Shown here: positions 20,107-51,129 of the stretch, piece after piece | How the letters are laid out: each line of letters begins with the position of its first letter | Position numbering within the stretch: position 1 is the first letter of the stretch | IMG/VR virus record: IMGVR_UViG_3300020045_014710 | Coordinates: 1 to 51,129 of that record | Strand: one strand, 5' to 3' | Source of the DNA: a virus | Lineage: Duplodnaviria; Caudoviricetes | DNA length: 51,129 bases | Translations under genes and position numbers: made by a program | The notes under the pieces: generated by a model | What the model saw: the letters and a program-made list of their open reading frames with translations, nothing else | Told to the model about the DNA's origin: nothing | Databases searched by the model: none

Positions 20107-21603
20107 CTAAAATAATTCTGGGTTTAATGTAAATGTTTTTAAAACAGTAGGTTTTATTTTTGGGCTGTATGCCGTTGGTCTTGGCTGTTGTGCTGCTTTT
20201 GCTTTTTGGCGTTCGGTTCGTTTGTCTGGTGCTTTTTCATAAAGCGGAAAACCTTTTATTTTTGCTACTCTTTGGTTGAATCTTCCCCAGATTTCTTTGT
20301 CTTTAAATTCAAAGTGAGCAGTACCAACTTTAAAACATTTTACTCTAAAATAAGCCCATTCAAACCATTGTCCGTACTCGTTTATCGGTTTTCTTCCAGT
20401 TGTGTAAAGTGTGTCAAATTCATCGTAATTATCGCCCGTGATATAACAAATTGCTTTTAACATATCTTCTAAGGTATTAGAAGAGTTCATTTGAATTTTA
20501 GTTTCTCCTTTATACCATCTTTGATCTTGATAACAAATACTTGGAACAATAAATTTTTGATTTAAAACATAATTTTCATTAGTTTTCCAACCTTTTAGGC
20601 CAAATCTGTTTTCGTGATGGTGTGAAGTAACTTTATCAAAAACTACCTCAATAGCTTTATCCATTCTCTGCTCGGTTGTTCCTATTACAATTTCAAGCAT
20701 TTTATAAATGTTACGCATCGTAAAAGGAATGTGTGTTTGGTCTTCTACAAATTTGTTTATATCGTCTCTCATACTTTGGGTAGAATACTTTTGCATATTC
20801 ATTTTATTAAAAATGAAGTTCCAACCGCTTTTTTGCATTTCCTTTTTAAAATCAGCTCTTTGTATTGGTTTTTCTTTATCAGTTACCTGAAAACCTATTT
20901 TTACAGAAAAATAACCGCTTGTTAAATTATTCATCCTGTTAGCCTCTTCTAGTTGCTTATCAAAAATTTTGATGCTTTCAACATATCGGTTAACTAAATC
21001 CCTAACAACATCATAACTCATTATTCCTTCGCCTTCTGGCTCTTCTTCATCATCTAAAAAGAAACCTTCAAACTCTGTAGAATACTTTGCACCGCTTTTT
21101 TGTAATATTACTAAACCAATTTCAACGCCTGTTGTTCTTTCGGAATTTTCAAAACAATTGCCTAAACTGGTATAATTCCCGTATAAATTAATATTGTTTT
21201 TTAGTTCTTTTCTGCTTTGGCTGTATGGGTTTACAATAGTTTGAGCGTTACAAAGTGAAATGATTTTACAACCTGCTGGCGCAATATTAAAAGCGTGTAA
21301 AATGTGTTTTTCGTCTCCGCTAAATGGTGGATTCATTACAATTAAATCAACGTGCGAAATGTCCGAACTCTCCAACTCTAAAAAATCAGCTTTTAAAAAT
21401 CTGGCTTTTTGGCTGGAAATGTGCGCCAAATCTTCGTTTAACTCACAAAAAAGAACTTCTTTCGCTCCGTTGTCATTCAAATAATCAATAATATTTCCTT
21501 TTCCTGCGCTAGGCTCTAGAATTACTTTATCAGTTATATTAATGCCTTCTAGCATTAAAAAAATAACATCGTTTGGCGTTGGATAAAAATCAGGATTAAA
21601 CAT
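20107..21603 (-). CDS. SAM-dependent amino-DNA methyltransferase with DUF4942-like C-terminus
   Basis: DFYPTP, ILEPSAGKG and VMNPPF motifs; C-terminal YFRVKCFK.GTAHFEF. Confidence 0.85.
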   Translation of the reverse strand: MFNPDFYPTPNDVIFLMLEGINITDKVILEPSAGKGNIIDYLNDNGAKEVLFCELNEDLAHISSQKARFLKADFLELESSDISHVDLIVMNPPFSGDEKHILHAFNIAPAGCKIISLCNAQTIVNPYSQSRKELKNNINLYGNYTSLGNCFENSERTTGVEIGLVILQKSGAKYSTEFEGFFLDDEEEPEGEGIMSYDVVRDLVNRYVESIKIFDKQLEEANRMNNLTSGYFSVKIGFQVTDKEKPIQRADFKKEMQKSGWNFIFNKMNMQKYSTQSMRDDINKFVEDQTHIPFTMRNIYKMLEIVIGTTEQRMDKAIEVVFDKVTSHHHENRFGLKGWKTNENYVLNQKFIVPSICYQDQRWYKGETKIQMNSSNTLEDMLKAICYITGDNYDEFDTLYTTGRKPINEYGQWFEWAYFRVKCFKVGTAHFEFKDKEIWGRFNQRVAKIKGFPLYEKAPDKRTERQKAKAAQQPRPTAYSPKIKPTVLKTFTLNPELF

Positions 21604-37412: not shown

Positions 37413-37997
37413 ATGAAGGGAATAAGTCATTTTATTATTGAAGTAAAAAATCCTTTTAAGGATACAATCGAAGTGGGAGAGGCAAAACTATTCATTGATA
37501 AAAAAATATCAAGGGATCGCTCTTCAAATCGTTTTGGGAAGATTGTTAATCTACCGGTATTCGGTGATGAAACGATTCTGAAAGAAGGGTACGAAATCAT
37601 TTTTGATGCTACCATTTTGTACCAACAAATTTACAAAGAAGGCGTGCAGGAAAGCATCCATTTGGTAAACAAAGAAAAGTCCTGGTACAAAATAGAATCC
37701 GATTTAATAATCCTGTACAGAGAAAACGAAAGTTCAGCATGGAAAGGATACAAGGATAATTTGATGGTTTCTTTTATCAAAGAAGAAGCAAAAGTTTTCT
37801 CAGGAATACTTACCGGTCCAGCCAAAGAAAAATTCGTAAAAGGTAAAGCAATTGTAAAATACAACAATGATTTTCTGAAAGAGCAAGGAGTCATTAACGG
37901 ACAAGAAATATTTATAAACCCATCGTGCGGAATACCTTTTTTCTTTAAAAAAGAAACAATGTATTGGATACGATCTAAAGATGTATTAGCGGTATGA
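37413..37997 (+). CDS. GroES-like-fold phage protein upstream of terminase
   Basis: Two divergent GroES-like repeats (GKIVNLP..GYEIIF; SGIL..GKAIVKY). Confidence 0.5.
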   Translation: MKGISHFIIEVKNPFKDTIEVGEAKLFIDKKISRDRSSNRFGKIVNLPVFGDETILKEGYEIIFDATILYQQIYKEGVQESIHLVNKEKSWYKIESDLIILYRENESSAWKGYKDNLMVSFIKEEAKVFSGILTGPAKEKFVKGKAIVKYNNDFLKEQGVINGQEIFINPSCGIPFFFKKETMYWIRSKDVLAV

Positions 37998-47162: not shown

Positions 47163-47200
47163 AATACCATTTTCGTTTGGTTTGACTTTTCCCAGTCATG

Positions 47201-47229
47201 AAGAAGCCTGCTGTTGAGCAGGCTTTTTC
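47201..47229. terminator. Bidirectional terminator between the capsid module and the integron-like operon
   Basis: AAGCCTGCT-GTTG-AGCAGGCTTTTT. Confidence 0.8.
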
Positions 47230-47232
47230 TAT

Positions 47233-47394
47233 TTAATAAACTGTTTTATCAGTGGTTTTAAAAATATGTTTGTGTAAGGATTTTAATATCGCTACTGCCG
47301 CTTCGTAGGTTGTTGCAGTTATTGTTTCTTGATCGAAGTCTTTTTGATTCGCTCCGTTGTAATAATACCAGTATTCTATTGTGAATTGTTGCAT
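47233..47394 (-). CDS. Small hypothetical protein (53 aa, not in track)
   Basis: MQQFTIEYWYYYNG...DKTVY*; abuts the upstream stop. Confidence 0.6.
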   Translation of the reverse strand: MQQFTIEYWYYYNGANQKDFDQETITATTYEAAVAILKSLHKHIFKTTDKTVY

Positions 47395-47922
47395 CTATTG
47401 TAGCTGTCTTAAAAATTCACCTTTTTTAATTTTGTTAGCCATATCACGCACTCTGATTAATTTCTTATAATCTTCTCTAGAAAGTTCTGGAGCTTCTTTA
47501 CCTGGACGATCTACTTCCAGATCATTAGCCTGAATAAATGCCGAACTAAAAAAATCTAATTCCTCATTGAACAAACGTTGATAAAAATCATTTTTGGCTT
47601 CAATTTCAATGTAATTTGAAACTGAACAAGAAATCATATAGTTCCCATTTAAACCATTTTGTTTTTGCATCTTATTAGGAAATGGACCATATACTTTTAT
47701 TTCATAGTTTACTTTTTTTACAATTTGGTACCATAATTTCCAATCATTTTCTGAAATAGTAAAAAAATAATCCTCTTGTTTTTCTCCTTCAATTTCTTCA
47801 ATAGTCAAATTATGTTTTTTTAGTAAATCAGTAAGCATTTTTTCAGCGTTGATTTTCTCTCCACCAATTCCTTTGTCAGAGAGTGCTTTTAATTTTTTGG
47901 CTAATTCTATATGTTTACTCAT
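47395..47922 (-). CDS. DUF2786-like protein
   Basis: KKLKALS..G.GGEK.NA..ML..LLKKHNL N-terminus. Confidence 0.65.
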   Translation of the reverse strand: MSKHIELAKKLKALSDKGIGGEKINAEKMLTDLLKKHNLTIEEIEGEKQEDYFFTISENDWKLWYQIVKKVNYEIKVYGPFPNKMQKQNGLNGNYMISCSVSNYIEIEAKNDFYQRLFNEELDFFSSAFIQANDLEVDRPGKEAPELSREDYKKLIRVRDMANKIKKGEFLRQLQ

Positions 47923-47925
47923 GGG

Positions 47926-48759
47926 TTACATTTTAATATTATTTAAAGGAGATTTTATTTTACTTATTAAGCTATCCGAAGTATGAACATAAACCATCGT
48001 AGTTGATACTTTTTTATGTCCCGCTAATTTTTGTACTAAATTAATATCTGTCCCGTTTTCAACCATGTGAGTAAAGCAGTTATGACGCATTTGATGTGTC
48101 CACACTCTTTTTTTTACTCCTGCTTTATTACCTAATTGTTTTATTACTTGCCCTACACTTCCCTTGCTGTATTTATCTGAGAATTGTCCAGACAAAATAT
48201 AATCTTTAGTTTTATAACAATTCCAGTATTTTTCTAAAAGAGGAATTAAAGAAGGGTCTAACATAACCTGTCTGTCTCTTTTTCCTTTTCCTTGTATTAC
48301 ATTTATGATGTTCCTGCTCCGGTCTATATTTTGCCATCTTAAATTTATTAACTCCGTAACGCGCAATCCACAAGAATATAATAAAGCCAAAATAGTTTTG
48401 TGTTTTAAATTTTCGCATACGTCAAACATTTTTTGCACTTCATCTTGACTTAAAACGATTGGCAATTTTTGTTCTGATCTGGGATATTCAATGTGTTTAA
48501 ATTTTAACGGTTGTTTTCCAGTGAATTTATAAAACAACTTAACGGCAGAAATTCTATGCTTTCTACCATTAATTGAATTGGCTAATAGCAGCCATTCTTT
48601 AATTTGTTTTTCTGAAATCTCCGAAGGTTTAGTAGCTACTTTATTAAAGTGTTCCAAAAAACATTTCACCTGACTACAATAATTCAAAATAGTATTTTCA
48701 GCGTAGTTTTTTAGCTTTAAATCTTCGGAATACAATTCCACATACTTTCCGATGTTCAT
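47926..48759 (-). CDS. IntI-like tyrosine recombinase (277 aa) lacking the IntI-specific insertion
   Basis: KLPIVLSQDEV, LLYSCGLRVTE, GKGKRDRQVML, HQMRH, LAGH...TTMVY; all catalytic residues R-K-H-R-H-Y present. Confidence 0.9.
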   Translation of the reverse strand: MNIGKYVELYSEDLKLKNYAENTILNYCSQVKCFLEHFNKVATKPSEISEKQIKEWLLLANSINGRKHRISAVKLFYKFTGKQPLKFKHIEYPRSEQKLPIVLSQDEVQKMFDVCENLKHKTILALLYSCGLRVTELINLRWQNIDRSRNIINVIQGKGKRDRQVMLDPSLIPLLEKYWNCYKTKDYILSGQFSDKYSKGSVGQVIKQLGNKAGVKKRVWTHQMRHNCFTHMVENGTDINLVQKLAGHKKVSTTMVYVHTSDSLISKIKSPLNNIKM

Positions 48760-48789
48760 AGTGTGAGGTGTTAGTTTTATTAGTATTTA

Positions 48790-48821
48790 CAGATTATGTT
48801 TACATATAGTAGTTAGCAGGC
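48790..48821 (+). mobile_element. attI-like site (crossover G48812/TT)
   Basis: First GTT box (GTTAGCAGGC) has no upstream hairpin and lies ~50 bp from the integrase start. Confidence 0.7.
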
Positions 48822-48825
48822 ATTG

Positions 48826-49164
48826 CTACATTATGTATTTCAAATCAAATATCTCCCCAACTTGGTTTTTATATTTGAAGTCAAATTCATTTGATATTGA
48901 ATTTCTTAAACGGCTATTTAAGAATACATTTCCAGAACTAATGCAGGATTTTAAATCTTCAATTTTAGCCATTCCGAAATCGTGACTATCACCGTGTAAT
49001 GTGAATACTGAATTATCACGGTCTAATATCCACCATCCACCTCCTTTTACTTTTTCAATATCGGTAGCTAATTGCTTGTGATAAGTACATTTTGCAATAA
49101 TTAGAACATCGCCTAATTCATTGTTTGTTTCAATTATAAATTTTGGGAATACATCCATTTTCAA
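48826..49164 (-). CDS. Cassette 1 hypothetical protein
   Basis: HKQLA...GGGWW...LHGDSHDFG; stop 4 bp from the GTT box. Confidence 0.75.
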   Translation of the reverse strand: MKMDVFPKFIIETNNELGDVLIIAKCTYHKQLATDIEKVKGGGWWILDRDNSVFTLHGDSHDFGMAKIEDLKSCISSGNVFLNSRLRNSISNEFDFKYKNQVGEIFDLKYIM

Positions 49165-49191
49165 GATATTTATTAGTTAACAATCCACAAC

Positions 49192-49288
49192 GCCTGCTAA
49201 CATATGCTACAAGCTATATGCAGACGTTTTGTGCTTTGATTCAACTTTTATTTTGGCATACAGCGTGTAGCATCAGCCGTTGTAGTGC
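49192..49288 (+). repeat. attC-like site 1
   Basis: ...AAC-AT-ATGCTACAAGCTATATGC...GCATACAGCGTGTAGCAT-CAGCC-GTT. Confidence 0.85.
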
Positions 49289-49290
49289 AT

Positions 49291-49518
49291 TTAAGAAAGA
49301 ACCTCTGCACCAATTAGTTCATACTGTTCAAAATCACCATCGTGGTTATATCCGCCCGAAGAAAGCATCCTTTTCAATTCATCATAGTCAGTTGTAGTTT
49401 TCATCTGCTCAAAATACTGTCCGTACCTTCGGGCTTTGTATTTGAGAATAAAACGCACTACAACATTAGCTATACGTAATGCCTTTTCCTTTTCTATTTG
49501 CTCATAAATTTCATCCAT
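49291..49518 (-). CDS. Cassette 2 hypothetical protein (starts inside the attC2 loop)
   Basis: 75 aa; N-terminal KALRIANVVVR is encoded by the attC arm. Confidence 0.7.
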   Translation of the reverse strand: MDEIYEQIEKEKALRIANVVVRFILKYKARRYGQYFEQMKTTTDYDELKRMLSSGGYNHDGDFEQYELIGAEVLS

Positions 49519-49590
49519 TGTTATTGCTGTTTAATTATGTTGTTCGTAGTTTCAAAAAGGCACTACGCATAGCCTTGTACGTTACAAGAC
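49455..49590 (+). repeat. attC-like site 2
   Basis: ...AAC-ATTA-GCTATACGTAATGCCTTTT...AAAAGGCACTACGCATAGC-CTTGTAC-GTT. Confidence 0.85.
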
Positions 49591-49591
49591 A

Positions 49592-49912
49592 TTACAAATC
49601 ACGCACACCTACAACATTTCCGTTAATAGGAGTTCCATCTTCATAAAGTCCTTCGTGTTCAATTTCAGCAATCATTTGCATTGGTTTATTTCCTTTAAAA
49701 TAATCCCATAAAGCATCAAATCTGTCTTGAGTTAATCCCACTTTGGGCCAGAAGATATTTTGGTTATTTAATGGCTCGCAAGTCATTGATTTTTTTCTGC
49801 CTAATCCAGTAAGTTTAAAATCTGTTTTCACAAGAGTAACGTCTTGTAACATAGGTTTTGTGCTATTGCCTGATTGGTCATTAATCGAAACATTGTTTTT
49901 TTCTTGATTCAT
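49592..49912 (-). CDS. Cassette 3 hypothetical protein (starts inside the attC3 loop)
   Basis: 106 aa; N-terminal GNSTKPMLQDV is encoded by the attC arm. Confidence 0.7.
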   Translation of the reverse strand: MNQEKNNVSINDQSGNSTKPMLQDVTLVKTDFKLTGLGRKKSMTCEPLNNQNIFWPKVGLTQDRFDALWDYFKGNKPMQMIAEIEHEGLYEDGTPINGNVVGVRDL

Positions 49913-49979
49913 TTGTTTTTAATTTAGAGTTTAGGTGTGTTTTAAAGGCAACATCACAAAGCCTCCGCCGTTACTGGCT
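49841..49979 (+). repeat. attC-like site 3
   Basis: ...AAC-AT-AGGTTTTGTGCTATTGCCT...AGGCAACATCACAAAGCCT-CCGCC-GTT. Confidence 0.85.
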
Positions 49980-49985
49980 ATACTA

Positions 49986-50291
49986 CTATTTCGGTTTTTC
50001 ATCAACTTTCATAGCAGTAATTACATTATTTAACGCTACCGCCATTTGTTCGTATTGTTGCAATTCTGATAAAGCTAATTGTAGATTTGCAATAGTTTGA
50101 TTTAATCCTGCTGTACTTAAAATTAATCTTGTTTCGTCTAAAGCTCTTTTTTGTAGAATTTGGCTTTTCGCTCCAAACGAATATTCCGGTTTATAAGTCA
50201 ATAAGACTATTTCTATTAAAGGAGTTAATTCTGTTTTTCCGTTTTCTACCGTAAAACTTATATTTGTTCTAACTGATGCTAATTGTTTCAT
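49986..50291 (-). CDS. Cassette 4 hypothetical protein
   Basis: 101 aa ORF filling the cassette. Confidence 0.75.
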   Translation of the reverse strand: MKQLASVRTNISFTVENGKTELTPLIEIVLLTYKPEYSFGAKSQILQKRALDETRLILSTAGLNQTIANLQLALSELQQYEQMAVALNNVITAMKVDEKPK

Positions 50292-50334
50292 TTATTTAGT
50301 TTTTATAATTAATATTTGTTTTCTCTACCCGTAC

Positions 50335-50473
50335 AGCCAGTAACAGCGTGTTGTTTTCAGGCTTGGATTAGTGATTAGGTTGTTATTGTTTTTTATTTGT
50401 TACCATTTTGTTGACTCCAACAATTTGGTCTTATCTGTCACGCCCGAAAAGCAACACGCAAGCGTTAGTGGCA
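50335..50473 (+). repeat. attC-like site 4
   Basis: ...AAC-A-GCGTGTTGTTTTCAGGC...GCCCGAAAAGCAACACGC-AAGC-GTT. Confidence 0.85.
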
Positions 50474-50478
50474 ACCGC

Positions 50479-50856
50479 CTAATATATCGGTAAATCAGTT
50501 GTTGAAATAATTTTATAGTGAGTTGCGTTTTTCATTATAAATTCAATACTACCATCTAAAAGGAATTTACCTAAAATCAGACCTTCTTTTTTATCCATCC
50601 ACCAACAGTTGCAATCGAATTGAGGTAAATCATTTTCACGATAAATTTTAACCCATCCATTATTATTATCAATTCCTTTTAATGATTTTGGTCTTGACAA
50701 GTGTCCGTTAAATTCAATTTCTGAAACATCAAAAAAAGGAATAAGACTAATTTTTTTATTTTTAACACAATCAACAAATCCGTTTTCGTTGATATAACCT
50801 TTCAACGCATCATAACTTTTTCCGTATGCTTTTTGAATAACTTCTTGCTTTTCCAT
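50479..50856 (-). CDS. Cassette 5 hypothetical phage protein
   Basis: KQEVIQKAYG...RPKSLKGIDNNNGWVKI..E.DLP...THY, typical of Flavobacteria phage hypotheticals. Confidence 0.78.
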   Translation of the reverse strand: MEKQEVIQKAYGKSYDALKGYINENGFVDCVKNKKISLIPFFDVSEIEFNGHLSRPKSLKGIDNNNGWVKIYRENDLPQFDCNCWWMDKKEGLILGKFLLDGSIEFIMKNATHYKIISTTDLPIY

Positions 50857-50878
50857 AATTAATATGTTTTACGTGGTA

Positions 50879-51019
50879 TGCCACTAACACTCGTTTTGTG
50901 CTATTACGGCAATTTTAGTTAATATTAAATTTTGTTGTTACGTTCATGTTTTTCGTTAACCGAAAAACCTCGTTTCGCTTAGTGCCGTAACATCACAAAG
51001 CGAGGTAACGTTATAGCAC
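50879..51019 (+). repeat. attC-like site 5
   Basis: ...AAC-A-CTCGTTTTGTGCTATTACGGCA...TGCCGTAACATCACAAAGCGAG-GTAAC-GTT. Confidence 0.85.
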
Positions 51020-51044
51020 ATTGCTACATTTACGTTTTTATAAG

Positions 51045-51128
51045 TTAATTTTTCAACTCTATTTCTGGTTTTTTATTACCTAAGTAATTACATTTAAGAT
51101 ATTTTAATTCTAACGCTTTACCTTTTCT
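51045..51128 (-). CDS. Cassette 6 ORF, 3' end only
   Basis: Open frame ...RKGKALELKYLKCNYLGNKKPEIELKN* entering from the right edge. Confidence 0.45.
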   Translation of the reverse strand, partial: RKGKALELKYLKCNYLGNKKPEIELKN

Positions 51129-51129
51129 T

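Follow-up and report, generated by a model that had tools for sequence, protein, structure and literature searches.

The window analyzed here, the whole stretch of 51,129 nt, is the entire virus record IMGVR_UViG_3300020045_014710. From position 47926 to its end, it carries a gene for a 277-amino-acid (aa) tyrosine recombinase and an array of small, single-gene units that resemble the cassettes of integrons. Among related phages, cassettes have been reordered at the GTT trinucleotides that border the units. We consider it probable that this region is an integron-like cassette array whose units are excised and re-inserted by the adjacent recombinase, which would cut the folded bottom strand; the part played by the enzyme, the passage through circles, and the choice of strand are what we infer from sequence comparisons. 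By the defining tests of protein and polarity, the array is mobile and integron-like, yet not an integron. An earlier note made from this sequence had proposed a phage-encoded cassette platform; the fixed insertion site and the changes in order at GTT uphold that proposal, whereas it needs correcting in that the recombinase is not an integron integrase (IntI), the gene polarity is reversed, and the system is shared with Bacteroidota chromosomes.

A chained array beside a tyrosine recombinase

Between positions 48760 and 51129, there are 77 GTT and 41 AAC trinucleotides, and only five pairs are exact 10-nt reverse complements (48812 with 49192-49201, 49279 with 49455-64, 49581 with 49841-50, 49970 with 50335-44, and 50464 with 50879-88). 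Each pair joins the GTT at the start of a unit to a box near its far end. The box of each unit matches its own GTT sequence at 10 of 10 positions and the adjacent GTT sequence at 5, 5, 6, 8, and 5 of 10, so that in 5 of 5 units the pairing is within the unit, as the earlier note had described. Its unit lengths of 467, 302, 389, 494, and 546 bp, with a partial sixth unit from 51010, were also confirmed. Every box opens a hairpin of 91-135 bp that closes at the following GTT (Table 1). In the whole window, eight exact pairs are spaced 60-1000 nt apart; five are chained in the array, and three are scattered.

The G of the first GTT, which the earlier note had called attI-like, is at 48812 and precedes the recombinase start by 53 nt; this site has no hairpin, adjoins the recombinase start, and recurs in related loci. 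The five hairpin sites share 43-58% identity, with a longest common run of 13 nt. All cassette open reading frames (ORFs) in the window are encoded by the minus strand, the reverse of the polarity found in canonical integrons. The cassette 2 ORF begins in the loop of site 2 and runs through one arm, and the cassette 3 ORF begins in the loop of site 3.

Table 1. Recombinase genes, cassettes, and putative recombination sites in the window
Feature	Position	Strand	Remarks
Tyrosine recombinase, 277 aa	47926-48759	-	Phage_int_SAM_4 and Phage_integrase domains; no IntI-specific insertion
attI-like insertion site	48786-48815	+	Hairpin-less; GTT (G at 48812) preceded by conserved TACATATAGTA
Cassette 1, 467 bp	48812-49278	+	ORF 48826-49164 (-), 112 aa
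attC-like hairpin site 1, 91 bp	49195-49285	+	TAAC-A...C-GTT; R1 E-value 2.9e-4
Cassette 2, 302 bp	49279-49580	+	ORF 49291-49518 (-), 75 aa
attC-like hairpin site 2, 130 bp	49458-49587	+	
Cassette 3, 389 bp	49581-49969	+	ORF 49592-49912 (-), 106 aa
attC-like hairpin site 3, 133 bp	49844-49976	+	
Cassette 4, 494 bp	49970-50463	+	ORF 49986-50291 (-), 101 aa, no family
attC-like hairpin site 4, 133 bp	50338-50470	+	
Cassette 5, 546 bp	50464-51009	+	ORF 50479-50856 (-), 125 aa, phrog_27445 (function unknown)
attC-like hairpin site 5, 135 bp	50882-51016	+	
Cassette 6, partial	51010-51129	+	At contig end
Second tyrosine recombinase, 431 aa	16573-17868	+	SAM_5 domain; weak match to an arm-binding domain

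Cassette order changes at GTT in related phages

We compared 95 viral loci from two viral-contig scans, the second represented by the best 80 of 449 confirmed matches; the locus counts are not de-replicated. Upstream sequence of at least 1 kb was available for 71 loci (window included); of these, 61 have a paired unit starting near the recombinase, 45 have two or more chained units, and 33 have three or more. Downstream of the recombinase, which served as a control, one unit was found in 10/91 loci and two or more in 1/91. The distance from the recombinase start to the first GTT is 52-56 nt in 52 of the 61 chained loci. This GTT is preceded by the conserved TACATATAGTA and has no hairpin (54 distinct sites), and a YAACA box lies ahead of it in just 1 of 64 loci.

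Eight contigs (L020 to L027) carry recombinase genes that are 100% identical over 825 nt, together with four different first cassettes. Two of these contigs, L022 and L024, have four common cassettes (99.7-100% identity), arranged as A,D,C,B in the former and as B,C,A,D in the latter, and the arrays of L021, L022, and L024 reach the same flank after at least 3, at least 7, and at least 10 units. Three of the four alternative orders are each present in two to three separate contigs. The earlier note had suggested looking in related phages for cassette order and content that change at GTT, and these contigs display such changes.

To locate the break points, 29 full-length cassette matches between loci were compared at their borders; these rows represent four distinct events. 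Where the left neighbor differed (6 of 29 matches), identity stopped 0-1 nt before the G in 6/6, and where the right neighbor differed (7 of 29), divergence began 4-5 nt into the next GTT sequence in 6/7. One of the four distinct rearrangement events continues with GTA. The limits of identity on the two sides place the crossover within GTTA. The G/TT crossover of the earlier note thus stands in that reordering ends at GTT, but it is resolved to GTTA rather than to the single bond between G and TT. A unit moves together with the hairpin on its recombinase side, which fixes the polarity of the site; we took this polarity from the rearrangements in relatives because GTT/AAC pairing alone is strand-symmetric.

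Two cassettes of the window recur in another viral locus, L041, behind different neighbors and with identity beginning at GTT. For cassette 3, the first 121 nt are identical, and for cassette 6, 120/120 nt are identical to L041:2510-2629. The L041 unit is 410 bp long and has a 71-aa reversed ORF; its box matches 9/10 with a hairpin behind it, as had been predicted for the end of cassette 6 in the earlier note. An exact-pattern scan of viral contigs found the starts of cassettes 4 and 5 nowhere else and the start of cassette 3 only in the contig of L041. At L041:1441-2135, a truncated recombinase and its attI are oriented toward the array rather than away from it, which reflects either an inversion or a misassembly.

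The sites are conserved in structure rather than in sequence

A covariance model (R1) found exactly the five array sites in the 51 kb of the window, in line with the earlier suggestion that a new model be built; site 1 was found even though it was outside the training set. Blanks in R1 searches are not absences, as R1 missed a copy in L180 that is 91% identical to site 5 and also the units of the Polaribacter phage Leef_1. Neither the window sites nor the bacterial and phage arrays had a meaningful match in Rfam.

Among 174 distinct phage cassettes, inner site length peaks at 110-129 nt (112/174), an A follows AAC in 96%, and a C precedes GTT in 95%. The stem opens after an uneven loop, with an offset of 4 in 72, 3 in 56, and 2 in 33 of the 174 sites. 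There is a fixed stem mismatch at +15, and no constant single extrahelical base was identified in the 174 phage sites. The bottom strand gives the more stable fold in 158/174. Across 52 aligned sites, 88.5% of cells are paired versus 60.4% in shuffled alignments, and compensatory cells number 304 versus 91. These 52 sites had been preselected for good proximal pairing (48 of the 174 plus four window sites); the distal helix, which lay outside this selection, likewise compensates. Compared with attC features described in PMC5027507, the sites have R''/R' boxes around an imperfect stem that is kept by structure, not by sequence.

The recombinase is not IntI

The earlier note had recognized an intact tyrosine recombinase, and the ORF is indeed complete; residues R133, K158, H222, R225, H248, and Y257 are unchanged in 17/17 aligned relatives. 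The enzyme is not an IntI, however: the insertion specific to IntI is missing, and the phage proteins form a separate clade. The TIGR02249 (IntI) score is 163 bits versus a cutoff of 265, with the match broken into two stretches, and the alignment has 29- and 13-residue gaps where IntI1 and the Shewanella IntI bear the insertion. In passages of PMC7790495, PMC4889954, PMC8138268, and PMC9668308, this insertion is regarded as defining or essential. The best NCBIfam score is for NF040815 (198 bits, under its cutoff of 220), and the nearest sequences with solved structures are archaeal XerA (4A8E, 5HXY). In a Foldseek search with the predicted structure (mean predicted local distance difference test score of 84), VchIntIA (1.0e-15) and XerA (2.4e-15) ranked nearly equally.

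In two quick trees, the phage recombinases form one clade (39 rows, support 100; 14 rows, support 97). Three IntIs form their own clade (support 100), separate from that of the phages, and XerC/XerD are also apart. In the 14-row tree, the phage clade is nested among Bacteroidota recombinases (support 93), on the IntI side of the XerC/XerD split (support 96). We draw no order of events from these trees because the base of both is open.

Several relatives differ in domain composition. In three 267-aa recombinases (L014:6547-7347, L016:10001-10801, and L038:10001-10804), the first 100 residues are almost identical to those of the window recombinase, whereas the catalytic half is of another subtype; these proteins still head arrays. 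This pattern suggests domain swapping. Three bacterial relatives (L056:9491-10855, L067:9389-10630, and L053:4132-5226) have an N-terminal extension of ~80-170 aa that is missing in the phage enzymes, and in two of the three the extension has weak, below-cutoff matches to HARP (E-values 0.036 and 5.6e-4), a binder of single/double-strand junctions. One array unit of L163, 2066 bp long, contains a further recombinase gene from this family (L163:4561-5538).

Reversed genes and their predicted functions

Of 174 phage cassettes, 161 carry a reversed ORF, 2 carry an ORF in the canonical direction, and 11 lack a long ORF. As in units 2 and 3 of the window, 55 of the 161 reversed ORFs begin inside the hairpin. 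Because of this reversed polarity, the array cannot be read from a promoter on the attI side. A sigma-70 promoter scan gave 8 sites versus 18 in shuffles, i.e., fewer than in shuffled sequence, and a Bacteroidota -7 motif (TAnnTTTG) is absent from the coding strand at 47200-51129.

Pfam assigned matches to 32 of 150 phage cassette ORFs (scanned from a total of 156). Fifteen of the 150 are DNA methyltransferases, and the other cargo includes Mom, two TAGT glycosyltransferases, three PAPS-reductase-like proteins, a dATP/dGTP pyrophosphohydrolase, and an Acb2/Tad1 domain. No interbacterial immunity family was detected by Pfam among the 150 phage cassette ORFs or the five from the window. For the window's five cassette proteins, Pfam, NCBIfam, and PADLOC returned no family, and PHROGs returned one family of unknown function (cassette 5). 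The cassette 3 protein appears to resemble stand-alone DNA-ligase OB-fold proteins, a resemblance that we offer as a lead only. An Atlas match for cassette 1, although scored with high confidence, led to no informative family and was not used.

Related arrays in bacterial chromosomes and cultured phages

Within the 61 Flavobacteriaceae genomes searched, R1 matched in 52. One member of this family, titled Flavobacterium chuncheonense (G001, which holds locus L097), has 76 R1 sites, 22 of which are on one 18-kb contig; on another contig, five sites lie downstream of a related recombinase. Within the 22-site array, ORFs are forward in 21/21 units. With units chosen by R1, the box of the unit itself matches at 9-10 of 10 positions in 19/21, and the next box matches equally well in just 1/21. 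Judging from these sequences, the cassette system is common to phages and Bacteroidota chromosomes and is not phage-specific. On this point, the earlier note needs correcting.

Longer relatives of the recombinase head similar downstream arrays in Algoriphagus, a Bacteroidetes metagenome-assembled genome, Desulfitobacterium, and Fusibacter. At the Desulfitobacterium (Bacillota) locus, L055:10951-19557, a recombinase that lacks the I2 helix, which is part of the IntI-specific insertion, is followed by a chain of nine units whose sites are short and whose ORFs are forward. In passages of Cury et al. (PMC4889954), no complete integrons are reported in Firmicutes. A search of 201 genomes from the class of G001 found no relative above 43% identity. 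In a scan of genome contigs (3 of 64 parts), relatives were 26-38% identical among the matches listed, and a scan of this extent does not bear on close prophage relatives. Leef_1 has a recombinase with paired units.

Two plasmids carry related elements. On a Klebsiella plasmid (L215:7136-8757), a truncated recombinase that is 46% identical to a Bacteroidota array recombinase is directly followed by a GTT site and then by blaVEB-3. On a Chryseobacterium plasmid (L216:10134-17779), an array with R1 sites includes a short, ORF-less repeated unit in four copies.

Proposed mechanism and alternatives

In the mechanism that we consider probable, a cassette would leave as a circle in which its two boxes are re-paired. 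The strand complementary to GTT, which is the coding strand in phages, would fold and be cut at AAC. New cassettes would enter at the attI-like site, such that the newest gene adjoins the recombinase. The cassette genes, being co-directional with the recombinase, would be transcribed from a promoter located past the recombinase-distal end of the array, and the A-rich hairpin loop may be used as a leader. In classical attC sites, the extrahelical bases are those docked by IntI via its I2 helix; here, the uneven loop by the GTT box (~2 versus 4-6 unpaired bases) and the fixed mismatches may replace them. Because the cargo of relatives is rich in DNA-modifying enzymes, the likely use would be to replace early genes rapidly, counter-defense genes among them, from a family of sites that Bacteroidota hosts also have.

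Several observations weigh against this mechanism. The IntI-specific insertion with its I2 helix, reported in passages of PMC7790495 to be necessary for cassette capture, is missing from the 277-aa recombinase. Sites number 4 in the cultured phage 11b and 10 in the cultured Flavobacterium phage filifjonk9-1, both of which have reversed genes and no recombinase, and arrays can therefore exist without one. Ten of the 71 eligible loci have no chained unit. All of the reordering evidence comes from metagenome assemblies, and no duplicated cassette occurs among the 174. In the contigs (rather than raw reads) of eight sequencing runs, there was no excised circle or back-joint; loose ends fell at the unit borders 50467, 49579, 51009, 49281, and 51007, although the distance to a unit GTT is 3 nt or less for just 3/16 and 3/22 of the listed loose ends. 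Proximal-arm mismatches give a mixed picture of the bottom-strand bias, with 48 top-strand G-T versus 38 A-C, and the preselection of the 52 sites bears on the covariation.

Four other explanations were weighed. The same recombinase might shuffle double-stranded DNA by two strand exchanges in the manner of Xer, with the inverted repeats as binding arms or relics. The missing I2 insertion, the proximity to archaeal XerA among solved sequences, and the near-equal Foldseek ranks all speak for this explanation, but arm sequences vary freely while their pairing is kept, one polarity prevails throughout all arrays, and a second exchange would lack a matching overlap because the bases after GTT differ between partner sites; we regard it as unlikely. 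Alternatively, a chromosomal recombinase of the host or a co-infecting phage might serve the array in trans, leaving the phage's own gene as a passenger or with another job. Such a supply in trans would fit the matching sites in Flavobacteriaceae genomes, the longer recombinases that head bacterial arrays, and the recombinase-less arrays of 11b and filifjonk9-1. Set against it are the nearly fixed spacing of the first GTT from the phage recombinase start, the invariant catalytic residues, and the phage proteins' clade of their own; we likewise regard it as unlikely.

An RNA-level explanation, in which the hairpins are leader, processing, or stability stems of an early transcript and exchange occurs by homologous or illegitimate recombination at repeats, draws on the more stable strand being the coding strand in phages and on the ORFs that start within hairpins. 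However, genes in the bacterial array are opposite in 21/21 units, from which it follows that the asymmetry tracks crossover polarity rather than transcription; a role in DNA is favored over one in RNA because the site asymmetry is unchanged whichever way the genes face. Furthermore, the sites are too dissimilar for homology and lack an Rfam match, and the break points are at GTT, not inside shared arms. We consider this explanation very improbable. Least credible of all is a combination of chance inverted repeats in AT-rich DNA with chimeric metagenome assembly. The array does lie at a contig end, and L041 looks rearranged, with its truncated recombinase facing the array. Nevertheless, five exact pairs are chained here versus three scattered in the rest of the window, most alternative orders recur in separate contigs, and the same sites are present in cultured phage genomes and isolate chromosomes; the reordering, the covariation, the bacterial array, and the cultured-phage sites largely refute such an artifact.

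Beyond the cassette array itself, we hold it possible, if short of probable, that recombinases lacking I2 constitute a second, widespread integron lineage, sister or ancestral to IntI, that recombines folded single-stranded sites without the I2 helix. With the same reserve, this lineage may take in the phage platforms with their reversed genes, the large chromosomal arrays of Flavobacteriaceae, the Bacillota arrays, and rAID-1, a Bacteroidales system described below. If so, a single cassette economy, overlooked by standard integron searches, would span the Bacteroidota and their phages, and hairpin recombination would be older than I2. If hairpin-bounded cassettes are reordered without I2 by an enzyme of 277 aa, the origin of integron chemistry could be tested directly on a small protein. 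Phages would then have equipment dedicated to exchanging methyltransferases and other genes of likely counter-defense function, and the same reaction would be a candidate mechanism for gene acquisition in rAID-1 and for the unexplained attC-like insertions in Riemerella.

Comparison with known systems

As in classical integrons (class 1, Vibrio, and Shewanella), the recombinase gene points away from a GTT site that has no hairpin, units contain single ORFs and show R'/R''-type pairing of their own boxes, structure is conserved without sequence, and reordering occurs at GTT; in the quick tree, the recombinase is on the IntI side of the XerC/XerD split. In contrast to these integrons, the window array lacks the IntI insertion, its recombinase falls outside the IntI clade, and its genes are reversed relative to the site. 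Box pairing extends over 9-10 nt, the loop after the box is uneven (~2 versus 4-6 bases), and sites of this type are mostly 130-140 bp. R1 had no match in class 1 or Shewanella integron regions. Archaeal XerA and XerC/XerD are similar to the window enzyme in size, domain order, and catalytic residues, but they are on a separate branch in both trees, and the window enzyme adjoins a cassette array and would act there instead of at a dif site.

The earlier note had regarded integrons as essentially bacterial and knew of none described in a Bacteroidota phage. Bacteroidota are among the phyla with integrons (PMC8618304), and passages of Qi et al. 2023 (PMC9892861) already describe IntI integrons in phages, along with an integrase-less attC cluster in the Polaribacter phage P12002L. 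The cassette arrays in those phages, and the methyltransferases in the P12002L cluster, resemble what we describe; the three complete phage integrons reported in these passages, however, have a true IntI and come from Vibrio, Shewanella, or class 1. Neither R1 nor the recombinase profile matched in P12002L.

Also in print is rAID-1, for which passages of Ross et al. (10.1101/471110) report XerD-like recombinases and integron-reminiscent repeats in 226 of 423 Bacteroidales genomes; membership in rAID-1 calls for a recombinase >44% identical to the B. fragilis 9343 reference and at least two co-directional genes downstream. As described there, rAID-1 is similar to the window array in that a XerD-like recombinase heads a co-directional gene array with repeated intergenic motifs. 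It differs in being bacterial, in having its array downstream of a longer recombinase, and in carrying toxin-immunity cargo, whereas the window array is upstream; those passages contain no analysis of hairpins, crossover, or shuffling. In a rAID-like plasmid locus (L217), the recombinase is 32% identical to that of the window and belongs to the same Bacteroidota tree group (support 93). The L217 sites open with TAACA but close with CCATTA, not CGTTA, and R1 did not match them.

Homology-independent gene insertion with a 140-bp attC-like 3' stem-loop is described in Riemerella anatipestifer, with its mechanism left open in the passages concerned (PMC13148043). The Bacteroidota host and the site of similar length downstream of a gene are points of likeness; the difference, in a comparison by description only, is that those passages identify no recombinase or crossover. 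In a literature search that had most subscription papers outside its scope, we found no description of a phage platform that combines an I2-less recombinase with reversed cassettes.

Genomic setting of the window

The window capsid protein has 47.5% identity to that of the Cellulophaga phages phi46:3 and phi18:3; the records that it matched carry the name of Flavobacterium, Cellulophaga, or Maribacter in 84 of 85 cases. Because of this capsid kinship and these record names, the host of the window phage is probably a member of the Flavobacteriaceae. Sequencing runs contained just 5-9% of the words, and we claim no habitat. The earlier note had also placed the platform beside the capsid module; homologs of the window capsid, portal, and terminase genes were sought within the fetched flanks of the 95 related viral loci and were found in 0/95, and this placement is therefore not borne out as a shared feature.

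The second tyrosine recombinase (Table 1) is likely the prophage integrase and could serve prophage integration instead of the 277-aa enzyme. A strong terminator-like hairpin at 47200-47229 (+) separates the capsid module from the convergent recombinase region. A gene for a GroES-like co-chaperonin is located at 37413-37997 (+), ahead of the terminase, and a DNA methyltransferase gene is present outside the array at 20107-21603 (-).

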